DNA of 64,000 nt from Nitrospirota bacterium (lineage in GTDB: Bacteria; Nitrospirota; Nitrospiria; Nitrospirales; Nitrospiraceae): assembly GCA_963703955.1 (NCBI GenBank), contig CAVPGK010000006.1, positions 1 to 64,000 of the forward strand. Direction: 5' to 3'. The notes beneath the pieces were generated by a model, which worked only from the letters and a program-made list of their open reading frames with translations, did not search any database and had not been told where the DNA came from. Below, one piece after another: positions 822 to 17,284 of this stretch. Position 1 is the stretch's first letter; every line of letters begins with the position of its first letter. The position numbers and the translations under genes are program-made.

Positions 822-2374
822 CCCCCGAGCAAAATATCCGTCCCGCGGCCCGCCATGTTCGTCGCGATCGTCACGGCGCTCTTCTGGCCCGCCTGGGCGA
901 TGATCTCGGCTTCCTTCTCGTGGTATTTGGCGTTCAGGACATTGTGTTTGATCCCATGTCGTTTCAGATACCCGGATAAGCGCTCAGATTTTTCGATCGA
1001 GATGGTGCCTACCAGCACAGGTTGGCCGCGCTCGTAGCAATCCTTGATCTCCTCGACGATCGCGTCGAACTTTTCCCTCTCGGTGCGGTAGATCACATCG
1101 GCGTAATTTTTGCGGATCATCGGCCGGTTGGGAGGAATGACGTTCACGTCCAGGTTATAGATCTTGGCGAACTCGCCCGCCTCTGTATCCGCGGTCCCGG
1201 TCATGCCGGCCAGTTTCTTGTACATGCGGAAATAGTTCTGGAAGGTGACCGAGGCCAGCGTCTGGTTCTCGTTTGCGATCTTGACGCCTTCCTTCGCCTC
1301 GACGGCCTGATGCAAGCCGTCGCTCCACCGGCGTCCGGGCATCAGGCGGCCGGTGAACTCATCGACGATGATGACCTCGCCGTCCTTCACCACATAATCC
1401 ACGTCCACCTTGTAGATCGCATGGGCCTGGAGCGCCTTCACGACGTGATGGACCAGGTCCATGTGGGCCAGGTCATACAGATTGTCCACGCCCAATAGCT
1501 TTTCGACCCGCGCGTTGCCCTCTTCCGTCAGTGCGGCGGTCTTGGTCTTCTCTTCGACCGTGTAATCCCGCTCGATCTTGAGCTGGGGAATGATCGAGTT
1601 GATGCGATAATAGAGGTCGGTGGATTCATCCGTCGGCCCGGAAATGATCAGCGGGGTACGCGCCTCATCGATTAGGATGCTGTCCACCTCATCCACGATG
1701 GCGTAATTCAATTCCCGCTGGACGCACTGGTCCAGGTTGGTGACGATCAGGTTGTCCCGCAAATAATCGAAGCCGAACTCATTGTTCGTACCGTAGGTGA
1801 TGTCCGCCCGATACGCCTCCTGTCGAGTGCAGGGCCGCAAATGCTGCAGTCGCTTATCCGATGCGTCATAGTGTGGATCGAAGAGGAAGGACGCATCGTG
1901 CTGGATGATGCCGACCGAGAGGCCCAGCGCATGGTACAGGGGTCCCATCCACTGCGCGTCGCGCTTGGCCAGATAGTCGTTGACCGTCACGAGATGCGCG
2001 CCTTTTCCCGACAGCGCGTTCAAGTAGAGCGACAGGGTCGCCACGAGGGTCTTCCCTTCGCCGGTTTTCATCTCGGCGATCTTGCCTTTGTGCAGCACCA
2101 TCCCGCCCAATAGTTGGACATCGAAATGCCGCATGGACAGGACCCGCTTCGAAGCTTCGCGGCAGACCGCGAAGGCTTCCGGCAGGAGATCGTCTAGAGT
2201 TTCTCCGTCTTGAACGCGCTTCTGATATTCGGCTGTCCTTTCGGCAAAGGCAGCGGTCGTCAGCGGCGCGACCGTGGCCTCCAATTCATTGATGCGCGCC
2301 ACGGTCGGCCGCAACTGATTGATCTCGCGATCGTTTTTACTGCCGAAAATCAGATTGAGCGCTTGTGCAAGCAT
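821..2374 (-). CDS. secA: Preprotein translocase subunit SecA, C-terminally truncated at ~821
   Basis: EMKTGEGKT Walker [36 protein letters not shown] and [15 protein letters not shown]. SecA similarity stops after about residue 518. Confidence 0.95.
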
Positions 2375-2422
2375 GAATCTAACCCATTCAGACTAAAAGA
2401 TTATTTTCACGGTGGGCGAGTT

Positions 2423-2450
2423 AGTATACCGCAATTCGACCCCGATTCAA
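2423..2450 (-). promoter_or_regulatory. Putative sigma70 promoter of secA
   Basis: TTGAAT-16 nt-TATACT on the minus strand about 50 nt upstream of the secA ATG. Confidence 0.5.
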
Positions 2451-2547
2451 AGGAGAAGCCGGACCGATCACATCTACACTCACTAGGTGCCGATGGGACC
2501 ATCAGATTCCCCCAGGCGCGCTCCTTAGCCGCGAAGTCTCGGCTGAG

Positions 2548-2619
2548 CGGCGTTCAAATAAATGCGCCCTCTTCATTGCGACCAGCCCGGCCGACGGCGT
2601 TCAAATAAACGCGCCTTCT
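2548..2619. repeat. Tandem 25-bp direct repeat, candidate transcription-factor sites
   Basis: CGGCGTTCAAATAAATGCGCCCTCT (2548-2572) and CGGCGTTCAAATAAACGCGCCTTCT (2595-2619). The second copy contains the dyad GCGTT-N6-AACGC. Confidence 0.75.
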
Positions 2620-2627
2620 CGGCGGCC

Positions 2628-2656
2628 TTGACACTCGAGAAGGGAACAACTAGTAT
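2628..2656 (+). promoter_or_regulatory. sigma70 promoter, probably giving a leaderless transcript
   Basis: TTGACA-17 nt-TAGTAT. The ATG at 2664 follows the -10 after 7 nt, and there is no SD. Confidence 0.65.
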
Positions 2657-2663
2657 CCACGCT

Positions 2664-2969
2664 ATGATTCGTCGTCTGCGGTCATTGCTTGCGGTGGGGT
2701 TGGCCGTTTGCATTCTACTTCTCAGCGGTCTGGTCTATCCCCAGGCAGTTGCGCACGCCGCGCACCACGCTCATCATAAAGCGGCGACCCATGCGACCGC
2801 GCTTTGCACCTGGATGTGCGCGGCCGGGCAGGGACTCGAAGCGATCCAGATTGTCCTGCACGCTCACATTCAACCCGTCACGTCTGTCGACGCCGCACCT
2901 TCCGAAGACCCGCGCGGCATAGTGCGTCTCCTTTCTCAGTCTCGCGCCCCACCGGTTGGCCCCGTCTAG
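2664..2969 (+). CDS. DUF2946/CruR-like leader protein 1, RAPP arrest-peptide candidate
   Basis: N-terminal hydrophobic segment, His-rich HAAHHAHH, LCTWMC and C-terminal SRAPP. First ORF of a TonB/TBDR operon. Confidence 0.75.
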   Translation: MIRRLRSLLAVGLAVCILLLSGLVYPQAVAHAAHHAHHKAATHATALCTWMCAAGQGLEAIQIVLHAHIQPVTSVDAAPSEDPRGIVRLLSQSRAPPVGPV

Positions 2970-3169
2970 CGCCATTACAATAGCAGTCGTCGTCTATCCA
3001 AACACGAAAAACCTGACTTCATAGGCTCAGTGCCGTTGCACACGACCCGATAAGTCGGGAGAAACCCTTAGCCGGCGGCTGCTCCTCACTACCCGGTTGC
3101 CAAACGCTTGAGTACGTTTCATTGATGAATCTGACTTGCCTCGGATCCGCAGGAGCTAGGAGAAACGAC

Positions 3170-3628
3170 ATGAAATTCGCATGGTCAACGCAGCGGTTCC
3201 GATGGGTCGGCCTGTACGCGGGCCTCATTGGTGCCTGGCTCGCATGCGAGCCTCTGGCCTTGGCGGAAACCAAAGGCGATAAGGCATTCACGGCTGTCGT
3301 CACGGACACGCAGGGTGTCGAAACAGAGATGAAAAATATTCTCTTCTACTGGGAAGAGAAAGTCAGCGAGACCGCCTTCGTTCCTCATGAATTGAAACAA
3401 CTCCCGGTCAAACGTGGGAACGCGACGGTCTACCTTAAATTTGACACGCTGAAGCAAATTGAAGCCAAGCCGGCTCAAGATAAGGGGAGCCAGACGCTCA
3501 CCGTGACGCTTGCTAACGGGAAAACCGGCGAGTTCACGCCTGCGATCGCCGGAAGCTTGAAGGGTGAGTCGGACTTCGGTCAGGTTGAAGTGCCGTTACA
3601 GAGCGTCGCCAAGGTCGTCTTTAAATAG
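3170..3628 (+). CDS. Exported hypothetical protein
   Basis: AGGAG RBS, signal peptide ending ALA, beta-rich mature part. Confidence 0.75.
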   Translation: MKFAWSTQRFRWVGLYAGLIGAWLACEPLALAETKGDKAFTAVVTDTQGVETEMKNILFYWEEKVSETAFVPHELKQLPVKRGNATVYLKFDTLKQIEAKPAQDKGSQTLTVTLANGKTGEFTPAIAGSLKGESDFGQVEVPLQSVAKVVFK

Positions 3629-3647
3629 CGGGATTGAAACAGCCGTT

Positions 3648-4860
3648 ATGAGCTCATTTGACTGTCCCACAGATTTTCGTGTTCAGGGATGGGGCGTTTC
3701 ACTCATCGCCCACGCGGCGCTCGTGAGCCTCGCCGTCATGGCAGTCGCCCAAGTGAAGTTTGTCCCCGATCGAAATGTGTTTCGATGGGAGGTCGCCATC
3801 GTGCGGCCGCCGACATCGGAACCGACAATGGCGACGACCGAGCCGCAGCCTCCGGCGTCATCCGTCTCCCAACCAACTCCAGCCACGACCTCGCCACCGG
3901 CTGCGCCGAAACCGAGCGTGGCACGGCAGATCGAATCCAAACAGGTGGAAAGCGCTCGGCTCGAGCCCAAGACTCTCCTGGCGAGGCCGATCGAGGAACA
4001 GGTTCTGGAACGGCGACAGGTCGAGCAGGTTCGGCCCATCAAGCAAGCGGAAGCATCCCGCCAGATCGAAACGGTCACCTCTCGTCCCGTGGAAACGGAG
4101 GCTTACGAAAAAGCACAGGTCGTTCAGGAACGACAGCGGATTGAGGACAAAGCCACTCCCGTGGTGACGCAGGCGCCCCATGAGGCGGCTACGGTTCACA
4201 AACAGGAAGTGGTCTCCACCACCCAGCCCATGGAGACGCCCCTGCCGACCACAGAAGTTGGCTCGGTGGAATCTCCGCAGCCGGTGACCAAGAAGATCGT
4301 TCCTGTGGAACAGACCCCGGTCAGGGCTGAACCCGCGCCGGTCACGCAGCAGATAGCGGCCGAATCACCGTCTCCGGCGACCAGGGACGTCGCGCCGAGG
4401 CTCACAGAGAGCCCGCCGGATGAACCACACCCGACAGCAGTTGCGCGCGCGGACCAAGGGCCAGCCGCCGACACGGTTACCCCGCCGGCTTCACCGGTTC
4501 CCTCGGCTGAAAACGTTCGGGAGCAGGCGCCTTCCACAGCCATGGTTGCGAAAGCATTTCCGACGCCCCGTGCGGACTTCGGTTGGCTGACACAAGCGCT
4601 CTGGCGAAAGATCGAACAGCTCAAGCGGTATCCGCACAAAGCTCGGTTAAACCGATTGGGAGGGCACCGTGGTCGTCCGCGCGGTGATCAGAGAGGACGG
4701 ATATTTTGCTGAGCTAACCATGGAGACAAGCTCGGGTCACGACGTGCTCGATCAGGACGCGATCGAGCTGTTACGCAAAGCTTCGCCGGTGACGTTGAAG
4801 CACGAATTGGGGCGGCCTGAACTGACCATTCGCATTCCGATCAACTACAAGCTCGAATAA
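3648..4860 (+). CDS. tonB: Energy transducer TonB, with a +1 frameshift near 4657
   Basis: TM anchor SLIAH, long Pro/Thr/Glu linker, and TonB C-terminal domain KRYPHKARLNR[fs]EGTVVVRAVI...SSGHDVLDQDA...IPINYKL split over two frames. Confidence 0.8.
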
Positions 4861-4884
4861 GAACGATCTGGACAAGCATGGCAT

Positions 4885-6174
4885 ATGAAACGTCCCTTCC
4901 TCGCCATGCCGTCCCTCTTGCCCATCCTCTGCATCAGTGTATTTTCAACCTCGACATTGGCTGAACCCGCTCCGGTCATGCCTCTGAGCTTGAACGCTAA
5001 ACAAACGATTCTGGAGGGCACTCAGCAGATCTCTCCCCCTGCACTCCAATTCGATCAGGCAGGGAACGTGGTCCTGGCCTGGTATGACAAGCAGGGAGAG
5101 ACGCGGGGGTTGCGCGCGATCCGGATGAGCAAGGAGGGCGTTCCGTTCTCCCCTCCTGTCCAAATCAATCCTCAGACCGTCGAGCCTGATGCGCTCCATC
5201 AAGCACCCGGCCTGGCATTGGGACAACTGGGCAACGTCTTCGTGACCTGGTCGATGCCGAAGAAGGCGCCGGATGCCCCATTCGCAGCCGATCTGCAGTT
5301 CTCGGTCTCACGGGACGGAGGAGCCACGTTCGCCGCTCCGATCAGGGTCAATGATGATCAAGCCTCCATTAATCATTCCTTTGAGAACGTCCACGCCGCG
5401 CCCGATGGAACAGTGTATGTGGCGTGGCTGGACAACCGTGGGAAGGAGAAGAGCGGAGCCGGGGCTCAATTCGCCTGTTCCCGAGACGGTGGGCGCAGTA
5501 TCGAGAAAAATATGACGATCGACGGCATGGCGTGTCCTTGCTGCCGCCCGAGCGCAGCCATCGCGCCGAACGGAGATCTCTGGGTCGCCTGGCGGAAGAC
5601 TTTTGAAGGAAACGTGCGGGATATCGTGCTGGCTACATCAACGGATCAGGGGAAGACTTTCTCTGAGCCGATGCTGGTGCAAAAGGACGGCTGGGCCTTC
5701 CCGGCCTGTCCGCATCGCGGTCCCTCGATTGGGTTTGATCGCTTCGGCCGGCTGTACGTAGCCTGGTATACCGAGGGGACGGATGAGCAGCCAAGGCTCT
5801 TCCTTGCCACCTCCGATGATCAGGGCAAGACCTTCTCAGCGCCGTTGTCGCTCCACACCTCGACGACCTCGCTTCCCGATCAGCTCAAAATGGCCGTGCA
5901 TCCCGACGGTGCGGTCGTCGCCGTCTGGGAAGAAGTCACCGGCGTACGCAAGCGGACGGTGATGCGCGTCTCCATGGATCGCGGCCAAAGCTTCGGGCCC
6001 GTCCTCGCCTTGAGTGATGGGGCGAAGGCCGAATATCCCACGGTCGCCGTCCACGAGAGCGGCGCCGTGGCCGTCAGTTGGACTGAGCATGCGTGGCCGA
6101 ACAACCGCCTTGTGTTACAGCGAGGGACTCTGGATCTGTCGCAGATCAGAAACCAGATGGCGCATGCTCCTTGA
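4885..6174 (+). CDS. Exported BNR/Asp-box (sialidase-fold) beta-propeller protein with CPCC and CPH motifs
   Basis: Repeated SxDxGxTF/SF Asp-boxes, ACPCCRP and ACPHRGP motifs, signal peptide. Confidence 0.85.
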   Translation: MKRPFLAMPSLLPILCISVFSTSTLAEPAPVMPLSLNAKQTILEGTQQISPPALQFDQAGNVVLAWYDKQGETRGLRAIRMSKEGVPFSPPVQINPQTVEPDALHQAPGLALGQLGNVFVTWSMPKKAPDAPFAADLQFSVSRDGGATFAAPIRVNDDQASINHSFENVHAAPDGTVYVAWLDNRGKEKSGAGAQFACSRDGGRSIEKNMTIDGMACPCCRPSAAIAPNGDLWVAWRKTFEGNVRDIVLATSTDQGKTFSEPMLVQKDGWAFPACPHRGPSIGFDRFGRLYVAWYTEGTDEQPRLFLATSDDQGKTFSAPLSLHTSTTSLPDQLKMAVHPDGAVVAVWEEVTGVRKRTVMRVSMDRGQSFGPVLALSDGAKAEYPTVAVHESGAVAVSWTEHAWPNNRLVLQRGTLDLSQIRNQMAHAP

Positions 6175-6186
6175 CATCAATCGCGC

Positions 6187-6735
6187 ATGTGGTCTCTACG
6201 CATGGACAGCAGACGCGTCTTGTTGACCGGCTTCATGGCCGTCGCGCTCACTGCAGACGCTGTCGATTCACCGGCCGGCGAGCTCTTCAAGGCGGTCGGT
6301 ATTCAGGAGGTGACAGGCAACCAGATCGCCCCTGCCTTCGCCCTGCCGACGATTGAGGGACGGGCGCTGGATTCCGCGGACCTTAGAGGCAAAGTCGTCC
6401 TCGTAAATTTTTGGGCGACGTGGTGCGGGCCGTGCAAGGAGGAAATGCCGGCCATGCAGCGGTTGCAGCAGGCGCTACCATCTCCCGATTTCGCCTTGAT
6501 CGCTATCACAACTGACCCGCAACGGAAGGCAATTATCGAATTCGCGCGCTCGTTGAGTCTCTCATTCCCGCTTCTGCTGGATGAATCCAAGGACGTGAGC
6601 GCCGCCTTCGGCGTCCGAGGGCTTCCAACCACGGTCATTCTCGACCGGGAGGGCAAGGTCGTAGGGCGCGCAATCGGTCCGCGGCAGTGGGACAACGAGC
6701 AAACCATTGCCCTGCTGACGGATTTGCTGCGATGA
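6187..6735 (+). CDS. TlpA/ResA-family thiol-disulfide oxidoreductase
   Basis: LVNFWATWCGPCKEEMP and GVRGLPTT cis-Pro motif. Confidence 0.9.
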   Translation: MWSLRMDSRRVLLTGFMAVALTADAVDSPAGELFKAVGIQEVTGNQIAPAFALPTIEGRALDSADLRGKVVLVNFWATWCGPCKEEMPAMQRLQQALPSPDFALIAITTDPQRKAIIEFARSLSLSFPLLLDESKDVSAAFGVRGLPTTVILDREGKVVGRAIGPRQWDNEQTIALLTDLLR

Positions 6736-7091
6736 TTGCCGGACACCTTCAGCCCCCCCGAGGACATCCCAGGTTCTGGTCCGTCCTCGCCGTCTCGCTT
6801 ACGACGATCTACAGCGTCCTCATCCTCCTTGCCGCCGCTTGCCCCCTGGACCCCGGGCACGCTAGAGCAGAAAGCCACCACCACGGAACAGCCCACCACA
6901 CGAAGCCGGCGCACTCTCTGTTGTGCGCGTGGGCGTGTCAGGTATCTTCTTCAGCCCTCATGGCCGACGGCCATGGGGCCGTCCCCGTCCTGCTTCTGAT
7001 CGCTCGGATCGCAGCTTGGTTCCTGCCATTCTCCGCGTCGCCGACAAGCCCGCTCCACTCTCGTGCACCGCCCGCTCTGTTGAGCCGGTAG
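6732..7091 (+). CDS. DUF2946/CruR-like leader protein 2, RAPP arrest-peptide candidate
   Basis: ATGA overlap with the TlpA stop, TM segment, SHHHGTAHH, LCAWAC and C-terminal SRAPP. Lies 43 nt upstream of a TBDR. Confidence 0.75.
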   Translation: MIAGHLQPPRGHPRFWSVLAVSLTTIYSVLILLAAACPLDPGHARAESHHHGTAHHTKPAHSLLCAWACQVSSSALMADGHGAVPVLLLIARIAAWFLPFSASPTSPLHSRAPPALLSR

Positions 7092-7134
7092 TCCGTCCTC
7101 ATCTCCACGTAGAATCCAAACCAGGAGGACTCGC

Positions 7135-9390
7135 ATGCGCTCGACATTTGTAACAATGACTTGCGTATTGATGCTCCCGCTCGGCATCGCGACGCGCTCA
7201 AACGCCGTCCTCGCTGCAGAGCCGCCTGCGGAAGAAGGCATTATCGCCATGGAGCCGGTTCAAGTCAGCGGGCAGAAGATAGAGAACATCGAGGACGTCA
7301 AGGCAGACCTCGCGCGGCGCCCCGCGAGCACGGTGCTGGTCGAAGAGAAGGACATTGTGGAATCGCGTCAGTTGAACCTTTACGACGTGCTCCAGTTTGC
7401 CCCAGGCGTGCTCTATCGCTCGCGGTTTGGCGCCGATGAAGGCCAGTTTCAGATTCGTGGGACGGCGCTCCGAAACAATTTCCATCATCGCGGGGTCAAT
7501 ATTTTGATCAACGGCATCTATTTCGGCGACGCGGACGGATTCTCGGACTTTGAATCCATCGAGCTGATGGCCTACCAGCGTATCGAAATCTACAAGGGCG
7601 CGAACGCGCTCCGCTACGGGGCGAACAGCATCGGCGGCGCGATCAACTTTGTACCACGGACCGGCTATCAGGCGTCCATGCTTCAACTGCGGGCCGAGGC
7701 AGGGAGCTGGGGGCTGGTGATGGGCCAGGTGTCCAGCGGCAAGGTCACCGAGCCGTTCAAGATCGGACACATGGACTCGACGATGGATTATTACATCAGC
7801 CTCAGCGGCAACCGGCAGGACGGATTTCAGAGCAACGCGCAGCAGGCCCGGGAGCGCATCAACGCCAACTTCGGGCTGCAGCTCGGGACCCACCAGGAAA
7901 TCCGCGCCTACTTCCTCCAGGCCAACGTCGCCGAGCGCATTCCAGGGTCCTTGACCAACATGCAGCTCTTCGACAATCCGCGGCAGGTTGGCGGCCAGAC
8001 ACCCGGCGCGGGCCCGGCCAGCGGCAACTTCTTTGCGTGCAATCTGAATAATCAGGTTTGCAACTACGGGCGGTACTACCAGATCTACCGCATCGGGGTG
8101 GCGTACCATAACGAGTTCGCCCCACGCCAGTTCTTCGAGATCATCCCCTACTACTCCTATCAGTACTTGGATCACCCCATCTTCCAGACCATCAAGCAGG
8201 ACAACAACAACGTCGGCGGCGAGTTGCGCTACGTCAATTCCAATAGCCTCTTCGGGTTCAACAATTCAGTCGTCTTCGGCCTGCAGACACGGTATCTCGA
8301 CCAGCACCAGCAACGGTTTGTGAACATCAACGGCAACAACGGATCGATTACGAACGATGCGCTTCTGAAGGCCTTCTACTTCGGTCTGTATGGTGAGGAA
8401 CAGGTGGATGTCAACGAGAAGTTCACCCTGGTGGCAGGGTTTCGGTTTGATGATTCGACGCGCTATGGATCCATCACAAACTATTTCCCGGTTGGACCTC
8501 CAGTCCAGACGGCGCCCTCTGCTCCCGGCCCCACCACGGACCCGCTTCGGAATTTCAACCACCTGAGCCCGAAGTTCGGGTTTGTCTATCGAACCACCAC
8601 GACCACCCAGCTCTATTTCAACGCCAGCCAGGCGTATGAAGCGCCGCTCAATCTCGAGCTCACCTCGGCTTTCAACCCGAACGGATCGCCCAATACCACT
8701 GGATTCCTGGACTTAGACGCCCAGTCGGCCTGGCAGTTCGAATTGGGCTGGCGAGGCGCGACACCGAACAATCGCGCTACGTGGGATTTCACTGTGTATG
8801 ATCTGGAGATGCGCAAGGAGATCCTCACAAACGTCGTGAACAACTCGAACACGTTCATGAACGCCAACGATACGCGTCACATGGGAATTGAGGCCGGCGG
8901 CACTTTGGTGCTCACGCGAGGGTTGTTTGCGCGTGGGCCCGGAGCTGAATATGACACGCTGTCCAACCGCTTTGCCTTCGTCTGGCAGCGGTTTATCTTC
9001 ACGCAGCCGGTCTTCGGCGCGTTCAACACCGGTGGCCCGACCGGTTTGATCGCGCAAGAAGGTAATAAGGTCGCGGGCGCCCCGGAGTACAACCTCTCCT
9101 ACGAACTCCGGTATGACCATCCGTCTGGCTGGTGGGTTGCGCCCAACATCGAATGGCTCATGGCGGGATTCTACGCCGACTATTTGAATACGTACAAGAA
9201 TCCGGCCTATTTTATCATCAACATCCGGGCGGGCTATCAGATCACCAAGAACTGGTCTTTATACGCTCAGGGCTACAACCTGACCAACAAGACCTACGCG
9301 GGCGCCGTTGTTGTGCAGGACCCGTTCCAACGGTTTGCCAATCCCTCTATGTTGGCGAGCGGATTTGCAGGGTTCGAGTACAAATTCTGA
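7135..9390 (+). CDS. TonB-dependent receptor
   Basis: AGGAGG RBS, signal peptide, TonB-box-like EPVQVSG, plug motif RIEIYKGANALRYGANSIGGAINF, C-terminal aromatic FEYKF. Confidence 0.92.
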   Translation: MRSTFVTMTCVLMLPLGIATRSNAVLAAEPPAEEGIIAMEPVQVSGQKIENIEDVKADLARRPASTVLVEEKDIVESRQLNLYDVLQFAPGVLYRSRFGADEGQFQIRGTALRNNFHHRGVNILINGIYFGDADGFSDFESIELMAYQRIEIYKGANALRYGANSIGGAINFVPRTGYQASMLQLRAEAGSWGLVMGQVSSGKVTEPFKIGHMDSTMDYYISLSGNRQDGFQSNAQQARERINANFGLQLGTHQEIRAYFLQANVAERIPGSLTNMQLFDNPRQVGGQTPGAGPASGNFFACNLNNQVCNYGRYYQIYRIGVAYHNEFAPRQFFEIIPYYSYQYLDHPIFQTIKQDNNNVGGELRYVNSNSLFGFNNSVVFGLQTRYLDQHQQRFVNINGNNGSITNDALLKAFYFGLYGEEQVDVNEKFTLVAGFRFDDSTRYGSITNYFPVGPPVQTAPSAPGPTTDPLRNFNHLSPKFGFVYRTTTTTQLYFNASQAYEAPLNLELTSAFNPNGSPNTTGFLDLDAQSAWQFELGWRGATPNNRATWDFTVYDLEMRKEILTNVVNNSNTFMNANDTRHMGIEAGGTLVLTRGLFARGPGAEYDTLSNRFAFVWQRFIFTQPVFGAFNTGGPTGLIAQEGNKVAGAPEYNLSYELRYDHPSGWWVAPNIEWLMAGFYADYLNTYKNPAYFIINIRAGYQITKNWSLYAQGYNLTNKTYAGAVVVQDPFQRFANPSMLASGFAGFEYKF

Positions 9391-9736
9391 CAAGAGGGGA
9401 TTCTCGTCTCAGCTGCGGATGAGCCGTGGAACCATCGGGTTCTCATCGACGGTGGCGTCATAATCCGGCATCGTCTGGTTTGGCGACGAGAACGGGTCGG
9501 TGATCGCCCAACCTTTCGGTGGAGCTGCTGACCGACTTGAAACTCTTTGCGATTAGTCTAGGAAAAACAAGCGTAGGTATCCACCCACCAACATTTTGTA
9601 TCTCAAAGCAAACCCGACCGTCCAGTCGTGATCAGAGTCACCAATCGTCATCAGTCGACCTTCGGTCCGCATTGATTTCGGTGACCGCTCCGTTTATAGT
9701 CCGCCGAGATTACCGACATAAGCTGAACGAGGGACC

Positions 9737-10795
9737 GTGCGGAGAGTTTGTCTTTCAATCAGAGTGCTGGTCATAACCTCTGCGTTCCTCCTCTTTCTGC
9801 AGGAAACTTCCCTTCACGCCGCCCCGTCCGATGCGGCCATCCGACAGTATCAGCAAGGAGCGACCCTGTTCCAACGCGGCGATTATGACGGCGCCGTCGA
9901 CGCGTTGAAGAAGGCAGTGAGCCTCTCGCCGCAATTTGCCGAGGCCCATCATCTGCTGGGGGTCGTGTATTTCAAAGGCAAACGACAGCCGGCCGAGGCC
10001 ATCGAATCCATCAAGAAGGCGATCCAACTCAATCCAAAGTTTTCACAGGCCTATTACGATCTGGGTTTGATCTATAAGAGCCAGGGCAAATCCGCGGAGG
10101 CCGAACAGGCCTTCACCCGTGCCATTGAGCTGTCCCCTCGCTTCGAGGACGCGCATCTTGCCCTGGCCAAGCTGTATGAGCATGACCAGGAGACGGGGAA
10201 AGCGATTCAGGCATATCGGTCAGTGTTGGCCATCCGACCCGATCATCCCGAAGCTCTGTACAACCTTGGGAATCTGTACGACAGCCTGGGCGACACCCGC
10301 CAGGCCCGTGCGGTGCTGACGCAGCTTACCCACGCGATGCCGGAACACGCCGATGGTTGGTACCTTCTGGGGCGCATGGCAGAAAAGGACAATCGGCTGG
10401 CGGAAGCCACCGAGGCGTATCGACGGGCCATTGCCGCCAAACCGGACCTGGTGGATGCGCATTTTAATCTCGGCTTTATTTACCGGAGTGAAGGCAAGCC
10501 GGAAGAGGCCGCCAGGCAATTCCTTGAAGTGATTCGCTACAGACCGGAGTATGCGGAAGCGCACATGAATCTCGGCATCGTTTATGTGAGCCTCAACAAA
10601 CTGGACGCGGCGGAACAGGAGTATGAGAAAGCAATCGCGCTCAAACCGAACATGGCCGAGGCCCACTACAACCTCGGGGTGTTCTACGAACTGCAGCAGA
10701 AAGACGCAGTGAAGGCCCTCGTCCAATACAGGAAATATCTTGAGCTAGGAGGGAAGGACGAGCGTGTGGAGCGCATCGTGCGGCAAGGACAATAG
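9737..10795 (+). CDS. Exported tetratricopeptide-repeat protein
   Basis: Signal peptide followed by many TPR units such as AEAHHLLG, AYYDLG and AEAHYNLG. Confidence 0.88.
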   Translation: MRRVCLSIRVLVITSAFLLFLQETSLHAAPSDAAIRQYQQGATLFQRGDYDGAVDALKKAVSLSPQFAEAHHLLGVVYFKGKRQPAEAIESIKKAIQLNPKFSQAYYDLGLIYKSQGKSAEAEQAFTRAIELSPRFEDAHLALAKLYEHDQETGKAIQAYRSVLAIRPDHPEALYNLGNLYDSLGDTRQARAVLTQLTHAMPEHADGWYLLGRMAEKDNRLAEATEAYRRAIAAKPDLVDAHFNLGFIYRSEGKPEEAARQFLEVIRYRPEYAEAHMNLGIVYVSLNKLDAAEQEYEKAIALKPNMAEAHYNLGVFYELQQKDAVKALVQYRKYLELGGKDERVERIVRQGQ

Positions 10796-14259: not shown

Positions 14260-14676
14260 ATGAAGAAACTGGTGCGGTTCGGCGTCTCACTGGATCATCA
14301 CCTCTTGGACGGTTTCGACCGAGCGATCGCGCGGAAAAAGTACACGAACCGCTCCGAGGCGCTCCGAGATCTGATCCGGGACAACCTGGTCGGCCAGGAG
14401 TGGGACACTAACAAGGAAACCGTCGGCACGATCACGATCGTCTATGACCATCACGTCCACGATCTCACCGACAAGCTCACCGATATTCAACATCGGCATC
14501 ACCGGCTGATTCTCTCGGCCATGCACGTCCATCTGGATCACGATCATTGCCTGGAGGTCTTAGTCGTGCGCGGCAAGGGGACCGAGATCAAGAAGGTCTC
14601 GGACATCTTGATCGGTACCAAAGGCGTCAAACACGGCAAGCTTACGATGACGACGACCGGAAAGGGCCTCAGTTAA
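14260..14676 (+). CDS. nikR: Nickel-responsive transcriptional regulator NikR
   Basis: Ribbon-helix-helix start RFGVSLD...[11 protein letters not shown] and nickel site [12 protein letters not shown]. Confidence 0.95.
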
Positions 14677-14682
14677 CTAACC

Positions 14683-15114
14683 ATGCGTATCTGCGTGGTC
14701 GATGGCCGAGGTGGAGGATTGGGCAGCCGATTGATCGAGCGCTTGGTGTCGGTCATCGACCGGACTCATGACATCTTGGGTTTAGGAACGAACAGGATGG
14801 CGGCGCAGGCCATGGCCAAAGCCGGCGCCACGCAGGTCGTGGTCGGCGAATGGGCGATCATGCGGACGGTCCAGGAGGCGGACCTTATTGTGGGATCGCT
14901 CAACATCGTGCTTGCAGGATCCCTCCTAGGAGAGGTGACCGCCGAAGTGGCAACCGCTATTCTTAAGGCCCCAGGCCGAAAGCTCCTCTTACCGGTCAAT
15001 CGTCTGAAGGTCGAAGTGGTCGGAGCGGACGTCCCTCTTGAGCCGCTCATCGAACAAGCAGTCCAACGCGTGCAGACGATATGCACTGACGGCGCCTCTA
15101 GCAGTCTTCTCTAA
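14683..15114 (+). CDS. DUF3842-family protein
   Basis: MRICVVDGRGGGLG...LGTN..AAQAMAKAGA...GE...LLGEVT...KLLLPVN pattern. Confidence 0.75.
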   Translation: MRICVVDGRGGGLGSRLIERLVSVIDRTHDILGLGTNRMAAQAMAKAGATQVVVGEWAIMRTVQEADLIVGSLNIVLAGSLLGEVTAEVATAILKAPGRKLLLPVNRLKVEVVGADVPLEPLIEQAVQRVQTICTDGASSSLL

Positions 15115-15223
15115 ACCATCCCGCTACAGCCAGATCACGAGGGTCTGCGCCGGCTGCAAAACAGCCGCACGACGACCATTGTAAGCGTCTTCCCCACCCT
15201 AGAGATGTTCATCAGAGGAAGGA

Positions 15224-17284
15224 TTGATGAGACGTCTTCAGGTGCCCCGGCAACTATTCCTCGTACTGGCTCACCTCGCGATCCTCTCGGAGGTGTCATG
15301 GGGGCACGAACCGGACGACGCCATCACCATTCCCGAGGTGCCGGTGACGGCGGAGCGGCCGGTCGCCGCGTCGTCTCAACAGTTTATTCCTGATAAGGAA
15401 ATCCTGCTTCAACCCCAGGGACGCCCGGCTCAAGTCTTGCGCCTCATTCCAGGATTCGTCGCCGTTGAGCATTCAGGCGGCGCAGGCAAAGCGGACCAGT
15501 ACTTCTTGCGAGGCTTTGATGCCGATCATGGCACGGATGTCGCGTTCTTTGCCGACAACATGCCGATCAATCTTCGGACCCACGGACACGGCCAGGGGTA
15601 CACCGACCTCAATTTCATCATCCCGGAGACGATCCAGGGCCTAGACGTGGTGAAAGGAACCTACCACCCGGAATTTGGAGACTTCACGACCGCCGGCGCG
15701 GTGACGTTCAAGAGCCGAGATGTCTTGAAGGAAAACGTGGTGCAAGCGGTGGGCGGCATGTGGGATACGCAGCGCTATCTGCTCATGCTGTCGCCCACGA
15801 AGGACAAGGTACGAACGTTGTTGGCGGCCGAGGGCTATTATACGAACGGTCCCTTCGAGAACGACAATCGATACTTCCGGTTCAACGTGTTCGGTAAAGC
15901 CACGTTCAACCCGACGGTTCGGTCCGAATTCAGTGTGACTGGGTCCTATCACCAGGGAAAGTGGAACGCCTCCGGGGAAATCCCTTTTCGAGCCGTGACA
16001 GACGGCACCATCGATCGCTTCGGGTCTATCGATCCGAGTGAAGGAGGGAGCACGCAGCGGGCGACCGGTCGACTGCAATACCACTACGATACGACCTCCG
16101 GCGGCCGGTTCTTTGCCGATGCCTACGGAATGTATTACAACCTGAACCTCTTTACCAATTTCACCTTTTTTCTGAACGATGAGGAAAATGGTGACGGCAT
16201 TAATCAACAAGACCGACGCACCATGGTTGGGGGGAATCTGGGATACCGGCAAGCGGGAGATCTCTTCGGCATTCACAGCGCCGCGACCGTGGGGGTTCAG
16301 GTCCGTAACGACACCATCCCCAATATTCGGCTCGGGACGCAGACCAAGCGGAATCCGACCGGGACCATCATCCAGAGCGCGGTTGAAGAGGCCTCCTATT
16401 CCCCGTTCCTGAAACTCGAATTTCAGCCGACATCGTGGATGCGGCTTGCCGGGGGGGTTCGAGCCGACTACTTTACATTTGATGTTCGCAACACCTGCGA
16501 CACTTGTCCCGAGCAGCCGGCCGGCCGGAAGGATTCAGGTCAGGTCAGCCCCAAGGTCAACCTGATTCTGGGCCCCTGGGCCAACACCGAATTGTTCGCC
16601 AACTGGGGCGTCGGGTTTCACAGTAATGACGCTCGATCCACGGTCGTCGATGCCAGCACTCCACTGGCCCGGGCGCAAGGCGCTGAATTCGGCATTCGAT
16701 CCAGGCCCTGGGGGCCGGACCGGATGGAGCTGATCGCCACCTTCTGGACATTGAATCTGGCGTCCGAGCTCGTGTTCGTGGGCGACGAAGGGACGACCGA
16801 AGCGCGGGGGCCGACGCAACGCTACGGCGTCGAGGTCGCAGCGCGGGGGCAGGTGTGGGGTCCGCTCTACTTCAATAGCAGCTTCACGTGGACCCACGCC
16901 CAATTCGAAAACGGCGATGCGATCCCCCTGGCCCCCGAGCTGACGGCGTATGCCGCCGCTATTCTCCGATGGCCGGAGGGGTTGTCTTCACAACTCCAAA
17001 TGACCTACCTCGGAGTCAGGCCTCTCATCGAGGACCGGAGCATTAATGCCCCGTCGTGGATCGACTTTGACCTGACCGAGCGCTATTTGATCCCACTGAA
17101 GCTTCCGCACGGGCATCTCGAAGCGATCCTCTTTATCCAAAATCTCTTCAATACCAACTGGGAGCAAGCGACGTTTGCCTTCACATCCCGTCTGCCCAAC
17201 GAGCCGTCGGGCGGGGTACAGGACATCCACTTCGTGCCGGGCAATCCGCGGTTTGTGATGGGTGGCCTGGCGTGGTATTTTTAG
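15224..17284 (+). CDS. TonB-dependent receptor, probably Ni/Co uptake
   Basis: EVPVTA TonB box, His-containing plug HSGGAGKADQYFLRGFDADHGTD...RTHGHGQGY, C-terminal WYF. Co-oriented downstream of nikR. Confidence 0.9.
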   Translation: MMRRLQVPRQLFLVLAHLAILSEVSWGHEPDDAITIPEVPVTAERPVAASSQQFIPDKEILLQPQGRPAQVLRLIPGFVAVEHSGGAGKADQYFLRGFDADHGTDVAFFADNMPINLRTHGHGQGYTDLNFIIPETIQGLDVVKGTYHPEFGDFTTAGAVTFKSRDVLKENVVQAVGGMWDTQRYLLMLSPTKDKVRTLLAAEGYYTNGPFENDNRYFRFNVFGKATFNPTVRSEFSVTGSYHQGKWNASGEIPFRAVTDGTIDRFGSIDPSEGGSTQRATGRLQYHYDTTSGGRFFADAYGMYYNLNLFTNFTFFLNDEENGDGINQQDRRTMVGGNLGYRQAGDLFGIHSAATVGVQVRNDTIPNIRLGTQTKRNPTGTIIQSAVEEASYSPFLKLEFQPTSWMRLAGGVRADYFTFDVRNTCDTCPEQPAGRKDSGQVSPKVNLILGPWANTELFANWGVGFHSNDARSTVVDASTPLARAQGAEFGIRSRPWGPDRMELIATFWTLNLASELVFVGDEGTTEARGPTQRYGVEVAARGQVWGPLYFNSSFTWTHAQFENGDAIPLAPELTAYAAAILRWPEGLSSQLQMTYLGVRPLIEDRSINAPSWIDFDLTERYLIPLKLPHGHLEAILFIQNLFNTNWEQATFAFTSRLPNEPSGGVQDIHFVPGNPRFVMGGLAWYF

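Follow-up and report, generated by a model that had tools for sequence, protein, structure and literature searches.

Two arrest peptides that respond to copper have been studied closely enough to serve as references, each as a single switch at the head of its operon. CruR of Bordetella pertussis (Bp2923, DUF2946/PF11162), encoded in the cluster cruR-crtA(bfrG)-bp2921 (PMC9426467, PMC12992588), needs its CxxC motif, its RAPP motif and the spacing between them, and copper triggers Rho termination at a region with more C than G in this system (PMC9426467); the arrested ribosome holds Pro-Pro in its P and A sites, and arrest is supported by RAPP as well as RGPP (PMC12992588, the latter in its section 8). 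CutF of Rhodobacter capsulatus, which with the CutF-like proteins forms the second group (PMC8456105, PMC9973294, 10.1101/2025.02.05.636593), ends in PPP, stalls with copper present and opens a Shine-Dalgarno (SD) hairpin for a detoxifying oxidase. The window analysed here, a stretch of 64,000 nucleotides (nt) of a Nitrospirota bacterium of the family Nitrospiraceae (assembly GCA_963703955.1, contig CAVPGK010000006.1, positions 1 to 64,000), contains two small genes of a similar kind, leader A (2664..2969) and leader B (6732..7091), within one gene cluster that is probably a copper-repressed uptake operon with two checkpoints, run by arrest peptides. All features are on the plus strand unless stated otherwise.

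Both open reading frames (ORFs) are present with the common architecture that an earlier sequence-only reading had ascribed to them, and their Pro-Pro codons are correctly placed at 2949-2954 and 7068-7073. Leader A (101 amino acids, aa) has a signal-peptide-like N-terminus, a His cluster, the motif C48-T-W-M-C52 and, 4 residues before the stop, R94APP; leader B (119 aa) has a hydrophobic anchor extending to Cys37, a His cluster, C65-A-W-A-C69 and, 5 residues before the stop, R111APP. The hydrophobic character of the N-termini is a matter of hydropathy only (15-residue Kyte-Doolittle peaks of 2.7 in leader A and 2.3 in leader B), and leader B may be an uncleaved membrane anchor. The distance to the Arg is 41 residues from the second Cys and 45 from the first in both proteins, which are 21% identical to each other. 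Among 109 CxWxC sites found in a six-frame scan of the genome, RxPP follows 41-42 residues on at two, which are leaders A and B, so that the pairing of the motifs is not due to chance. The RAPP codons (2943..2954 in leader A, 7062..7073 in leader B) are the predicted stall positions by analogy with the toeprint of CruR (PMC12992588).

Like CruR, the two leaders are small, probably exported ORFs with a Cys pair, a fixed spacer, RAPP near the C-terminus and a TonB-dependent receptor downstream; a C>G region is clear in the family and modest in these two copies, and the extra Cys of CruR after its hydrophobic segment is found in leader B too. Unlike CruR, they have CxWxC and a His cluster instead of CxxC, and the Arg follows the second Cys at 41-42 residues in this family and the first Cys at 45-46, compared with 45 in CruR; cruR genes stand in first position in the parts of the literature covered, as does leader A, whereas leader B is internal and translationally coupled, and the receptor downstream is not CrtA. 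With CutF and the CutF-like proteins they share CxxxC, a putative export signal, a length below 150 aa, PP among the final 15 residues and a cis position before a co-oriented gene, but they carry RAPP or RGPP, precede uptake-type genes and show weak SD masking. The rules by which CutF-like genes were collected (fewer than 150 aa, a CxxxC motif, PP no more than 15 residues from the end, a co-oriented downstream gene within 1000 nt; PMC9973294, PMC8456105) describe both leaders (101 and 119 aa, gaps of 200 and 43 nt). The assignment as CruR/CutF-like leaders is supported, and the C-x3-C spacing, which had been taken as non-canonical, is not new, as CutF already uses CxxxC. Membership in DUF2946 itself was not confirmed by hidden Markov model search: PF11162 scores leader B at 17.7 bits (E 0.0063) against a cut-off of 23.7, does not match leader A, and reaches E<=0.05 in 15 of 72 leader relatives (best 2.8e-4). 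A profile comparison with five canonical DUF2946 proteins aligns the RAPP tail only (probability 52%), and the nearest ESM Atlas cluster to leader A that has a Pfam family is DUF2946 (score 0.94). The Nitrospira leaders are likely an unnamed lineage variant of the CruR/CutF switches and not a new mechanism.

Conservation was assessed in loci (given below as L numbers) fetched with the receptor and the BNR-repeat protein of the cluster, nearly all labelled Nitrospiraceae or Nitrospirota; these loci, like the genomes surveyed, are related to one another and in part overlap. A motif scan yielded 125 different leader candidates, one of them a false pick, of which 116 have CxWxC and 121 have a Cys-to-Arg spacing of 41 (54 candidates) or 42 (67 candidates). 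The arrest motif is RAPP in 90, RGPP in 27 and RSPP in 7, and the dominance of the same two forms that support arrest elsewhere speaks for stalling at this motif. When sites were picked non-circularly, as CxWxC with at least three His upstream and regardless of the tail, RxPP was found at +41/42 in 125 of 127. In a 72-row alignment with a mean identity of 21%, no residue is invariant apart from both Cys, the Arg and both Pro (the unpublished genome G006 contributes one leader row, L007, to the sets compared, and no conclusion depends on it), and the spacer is fixed in length and unconserved in sequence. The leader profile matches all 57 genomes of the same family (2-11 matches each, which are matches and not copy numbers), all 28 others of the order, 9 of 11 others of the class and 3 of 204 from the rest of the phylum, reach outside Nitrospirota being judged from the phylum genomes, a database listing and ESM Atlas clusters. 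The Cys motif, RAPP and synteny are kept across Nitrospiraceae. The named database members, among those listed, are hypothetical or exported proteins of unknown function.

Wherever the downstream gene can be assigned, the leader lies directly upstream of it and in the same orientation. A quick tree of 59 leaders (few columns; rows more than 70% alike or with no assignable downstream gene dropped) splits with an SH-like approximate likelihood ratio of 97 into 25 leaders before accessory genes, including leader A, and 34 others, including leader B, which precede receptors (30) or an amidohydrolase (4). The proposal that accessory genes and receptors have separate leaders thus corresponds to two distinct branches. 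At least two leaders are present in 84 of 94 loci of at least 12 kb, and four or five in 7 of these 94 overlapping and related loci.

The gene order of the cluster is leader A, an intergenic region of 200 nt (2970..3169), an exported protein (3170..3628), tonB (3648..4860), a periplasmic BNR-repeat protein (4885..6174, candidate metal-binding), a TlpA/ResA-like thioredoxin (6187..6735, WCGPC), leader B, a spacer of 43 nt and a TonB-dependent receptor (7135..9390), with inner gaps of 12-24 nt. A sigma-70-like promoter (2628..2656, 10 of 12 consensus matches, 17-nt spacer) precedes leader A; because its -10 element ends just 7 nt before the ATG and leader A has no SD, leader A is probably leaderless. 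The same layout of 7-8 nt occurs in L021, L089, L102 and L118, and the distance is 17-35 nt in most other head leaders. No other sigma-70-like site was found on the plus strand between this promoter and the end of the receptor gene, and leader B is translationally coupled to the thioredoxin gene, whose stop overlaps its start (ATGA). Sigma-70-like sites were also surveyed for the 209 of 217 leaders that do not lie at a locus edge: such a site stands before 61 of the 107 free-standing leaders, before 1 of the 34 whose upstream gene is no more than 35 nt away, and before none of the 68 that overlap or abut an upstream stop. The serial arrangement of the two leaders is therefore supported by a promoter-like site at the head and none inside, and from this layout the two checkpoints are inferred to be on one transcript. 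The listing of sequencing runs contained no RNA run, all shares being 0.15 or less.

With slightly more confidence than doubt, leaders A and B can be read as CruR/CutF-like genes that stall ribosomes at RAPP under copper scarcity, providing one uptake transcript with two serial checkpoints. The nascent leader chain would be exported, and a ribosome halted at RAPP would leave the His/CxWxC site outside the tunnel, 44-48 residues away from the P site. In the absence of metal the stalled ribosome would cover a Rho loading site rich in C and poor in G, and transcription would go on; metal binding would fold or pull the chain, allowing the ribosome to finish and Rho to terminate. Leader A would gate everything downstream, namely the exported protein, TonB, the Cys-rich BNR protein and TlpA, and leader B would act as an additional gate on the receptor only, whose expression would then need both stalls. 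TlpA may keep the cysteines of the BNR protein, and perhaps of the leader too, reduced. If this is true, two to five switches on one transcript would make control AND-type or graded with no need of a transcription factor. A more elaborate, graded staging is doubtful, in which the two old leader branches would have different thresholds, accessory proteins being made first and receptors under deep starvation, and TlpA would set the redox state of the CxWxC of leader B to make a combined copper-and-thiol gate.

Nucleotide composition bears on how a stall would be converted into gene control. Directly downstream of RAPP, C exceeds G in 84% of the 122 leaders compared, whereas this is so for 41% of 1304 control gene ends. 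At fourfold sites the frequency of G is 0.23 (n 1978) in the last 20 codons and the tail, 0.34 (n 3954) in the leaders' N-termini and 0.36 in the genome; this depletion of synonymous G around RAPP points to selection on the RNA and favours CruR-like Rho control. The genome has a rho gene. The 200-nt region after leader A, which contains a brief unpaired stretch followed by hairpins, is a candidate pause or Rho termination zone, and its fold is not stronger than those of shuffled sequences (z 0.86). The Rfam scan of 2300-9800 matched no family, so that no known riboswitch is present there.

The same serial stalling leaders could instead exert translational control in the style of SecM or CutF, the stall unfolding a helix that hides the SD, with Rho secondary or not involved. 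This alternative is rather unlikely. It is suggested by a predicted helix of doubtful significance (7078..7146, z 0.25) between the receptor SD and start and the tail of leader B with its 43-nt spacer, which is within reach; the stalled footprint lowers the cost of opening the SD at leader B from 11.8 to 10.8 kcal/mol. It also fits L002, where the SD is paired with the Pro-Pro codons themselves and stalling cuts the opening cost by half (from 21.9 to 10.6 kcal/mol), and the choice of CCT (CCUCC) as first Pro codon in 53 of 122 leaders versus 24% in genomic Pro-Pro. However, when 77 leader-gene junctions were folded (45 of the 122 being dropped for an unknown gene, a long gap or a weak start), the mean opening cost was 12.4 free, 11.7 after shuffling of the 5' piece and 10.5 for 150 control genes, the stall lowered it by at least 1.5 in only 37 of the 77 (by 1.0 at leader B), and many spacers are 110-250 nt long. 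A conserved SD-masking helix is not supported; L002 and the enrichment of CCT fit SD opening, so both the Rho and the SD-opening routes may be used.

The reading in which leaders A and B stall under copper scarcity depends on the metal, which had been left as Cu, Ni or Zn; the neighbourhoods of related genes favour Cu, and Ni and Zn less so. The receptor is closest among solved structures to the pyrroloquinoline quinone transporter YncD/PqqU (E 1e-20; CrtA 9RVQ, E 1e-8) and in a profile search likewise matches YncD/PqqU (2e-68) far better than CrtA (1e-23), for which reason its placement in the CrtA cluster (PMC12914433) was rejected. The predicted structure of the receptor was not used (mean predicted local distance difference test score 50.6, plug unresolved). 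Its relatives include 20 records of a plasmid collection; among the five of these examined in context, the receptor gene comes after a DUF2946 gene in four cases, and in four cases its neighbours include YcnI, a DUF1775-PCuAC fusion or a 'copper uptake system-associated' gene. Residue His347 does not vary among 20 Nitrospira-type receptors and five proteobacterial relatives. The BNR protein has no match among solved structures. Its C217, C219, C220 and C275 are invariant in all relatives compared, and the three of 174 matching records that were examined in context are all in DUF2946 or copper loci (one with copper oxidase/azurin-type genes, one with copper ATPases, one of the order DUF2946-receptor-BNR-thioredoxin-like). 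Fusions of BNR and TlpA (thioredoxin) occur in 3 of 120 homologues listed. TlpA is a known reductant of CX3C copper sites (PMC6669012), and the copper sites of CutF and ScoI are CxxxC motifs (PMC6669012 and the CutF papers). Since relatives of receptor and BNR protein are found in loci that are led by DUF2946 or concerned with copper, copper is the most likely signal and quite probably the metal sensed. The unstudied BNR protein with its four Cys and the His-bearing receptor group are likely parts of copper uptake.

A different signal, whether Ni, Co, Zn or the periplasmic thiol state, or different signals for the two branches, is slightly less likely than control by SD masking. Both leaders have a His-rich stretch, and CutF-like clusters with His only adjoin Ni/Co genes (PMC9973294); a Zur dataset from Caulobacter includes DUF2946 genes (PMC4176598), the gene to which leader B is coupled encodes a thioredoxin, and SMBP and HMA genes are found near some leaders. 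Against these points stand the copper neighbourhoods of the receptor and BNR relatives and the role of CxxxC as a copper site in CutF and ScoI, and nickel could be covered by another locus of the window (14263-17284) with NikR, DUF3842 and a second TonB-dependent receptor, which is a probable separate nickel-uptake locus. Least credible is the idea that the leaders are ordinary secreted metal chaperones with RAPP as a non-stalling relic, which is suggested by their signal sequence and metal ligands and by the first interpretation of CutF (PMC8456105), but which is at odds with the invariance of only two Cys, Arg and Pro-Pro at 21% mean identity, a spacer fixed in length yet unconserved, the synonymous bias at the RNA level and the constant position directly before a co-oriented gene, where assignable.

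Several observations weigh against copper-gated stalling of leaders A and B with Rho control. The two leaders of the window are only in the 84th percentile for C-G skew, and their 41 residues from the second Cys to the Arg are fewer than the 45 of CruR, a distance that in these leaders separates the first Cys from the Arg. The relatedness and overlap of loci and genomes mean that the counts overstate independence. The receptor has as its nearest solved structure a YncD/PqqU-type transporter and not CrtA or OprC, and its relatives are about 27-30% identical to it (26-31% over the 20 plasmid-collection records). His clusters would suit Ni, Co or Zn too. Neither a heme-copper oxidase nor PCuAC was found in this 82% complete genome; a NirK-like match below the cut-off was, and ammonia monooxygenase was not found in a search that is uninformative, as control genomes gave no match either. 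Finally, tonB carries a frameshift in this assembly, caused by one extra base near 4654-4658; relatives lack this base, which is either an assembly error or a true lesion; the TonB_C domain lies in the second frame (PF03544, E 5e-8), and a search with the TonB C-domain found no further copy of tonB.

Parts of this system are known already: single leaders of the kind, their components and their logic have been described, and members of the family are rows in a table of PMC12992588 (supplement file 8, the RAPP/RGPP upstream ORF catalogue of Fujiwara et al. 2025), for example NIDE0634 before the receptor NIDE0635. The catalogue, as far as it was covered, also lists two leaders of one cluster in some genomes; the covered main text has no 'tandem' passage and no discussion of a Nitrospira locus. 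An internal DUF2946 gene has been reported in a Pseudomonas copper operon (10.1101/072470). Two leaders in one cluster are not unique to this family: a locus of that table also has two canonical DUF2946 leaders, and canonical DUF2946 pairs occur in Paraburkholderia (AP028202.1, L166:315-5950), where the order is leader-TonB-ExbB-ExbD-leader-YcnI-receptor with a receptor of the same group; unlike leaders A and B, these have CxxC, exceed the Pfam cut-off, are known from annotation and in one case (the second) read RDPP. In Ralstonia (L167), the same BNR and thioredoxin-like genes follow a DUF2946 leader (DUF2946-receptor-BNR-TlpA-like), again with a CxxC leader above the Pfam cut-off that is known from annotation. 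This recurrence among canonical DUF2946 genes means that gating in series may be general and is open to tests in tractable hosts, for which L166 offers a model.

The lineage family, its two branches, the thioredoxin coupling and the arrays of two to five gates are undescribed in the literature consulted. No paper was found that discusses or tests leaders in series, in a search that covered text and not figures (Fig. 7b of PMC9426467 may show such loci), and no literature was found that links BNR, a TonB-dependent receptor, copper and TlpA. No Nitrospira copper study of the locus was found by titles and abstract starts, and the string 'Nitrospira' does not occur in the searched supplement portions of PMC9426467 and PMC9973294. 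The leader family extends throughout Nitrospiraceae, a family of key nitrifiers for which the literature found gives no characterisation of copper uptake.

Other leader types accompany the family. A third, divergent leader (G000:C2:6200-6529, minus strand; L075/L079) has one Cys (C-x-W-x-Q), more His and RAPP, precedes another TonB-dependent receptor near a cation-efflux gene, and may sense a different metal. Further RAPP/RGPP leaders in the same clusters, either CxxC-rich or with CxxFC at a spacing of 53-54, precede other receptors (L086:611-1006 and 4860-5264, minus strand; L011:12762-13094). The exported protein after leader A, which has 26 homologues among the loci and belongs to an unnamed Nitrospirota family, has no credible Pfam match, and its ESM Atlas neighbours have no common family. 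Many accessory-branch leaders are followed by another unnamed exported protein with an N-terminal Cys pair (L080:17393-18466; L052:7998-9200), which has no Pfam match and appears in a paper's table only as 'transporter'.

Just upstream of the promoter are two near-identical 20-nt copies 47 nt apart (2549 and 2596, spanning 2549-2615); this direct repeat was set aside as an operator because it is absent from related loci, and one more copy is on contig C18. The contig start (1-820) is probably chimeric: secA, on the minus strand from 2374, aligns to its relative only to residue 521 (about position 812), and bases 1-600 have a GC content of 42-46% versus 57% for the contig. Being divergent, secA could not be controlled by the stall and was rejected as its target. 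Across Nitrospiraceae the leader cluster is very often head-to-head with secA (566-2374 in the window; L018, L022, L025, L080, L083, L086), sometimes with a TPR gene between the two.

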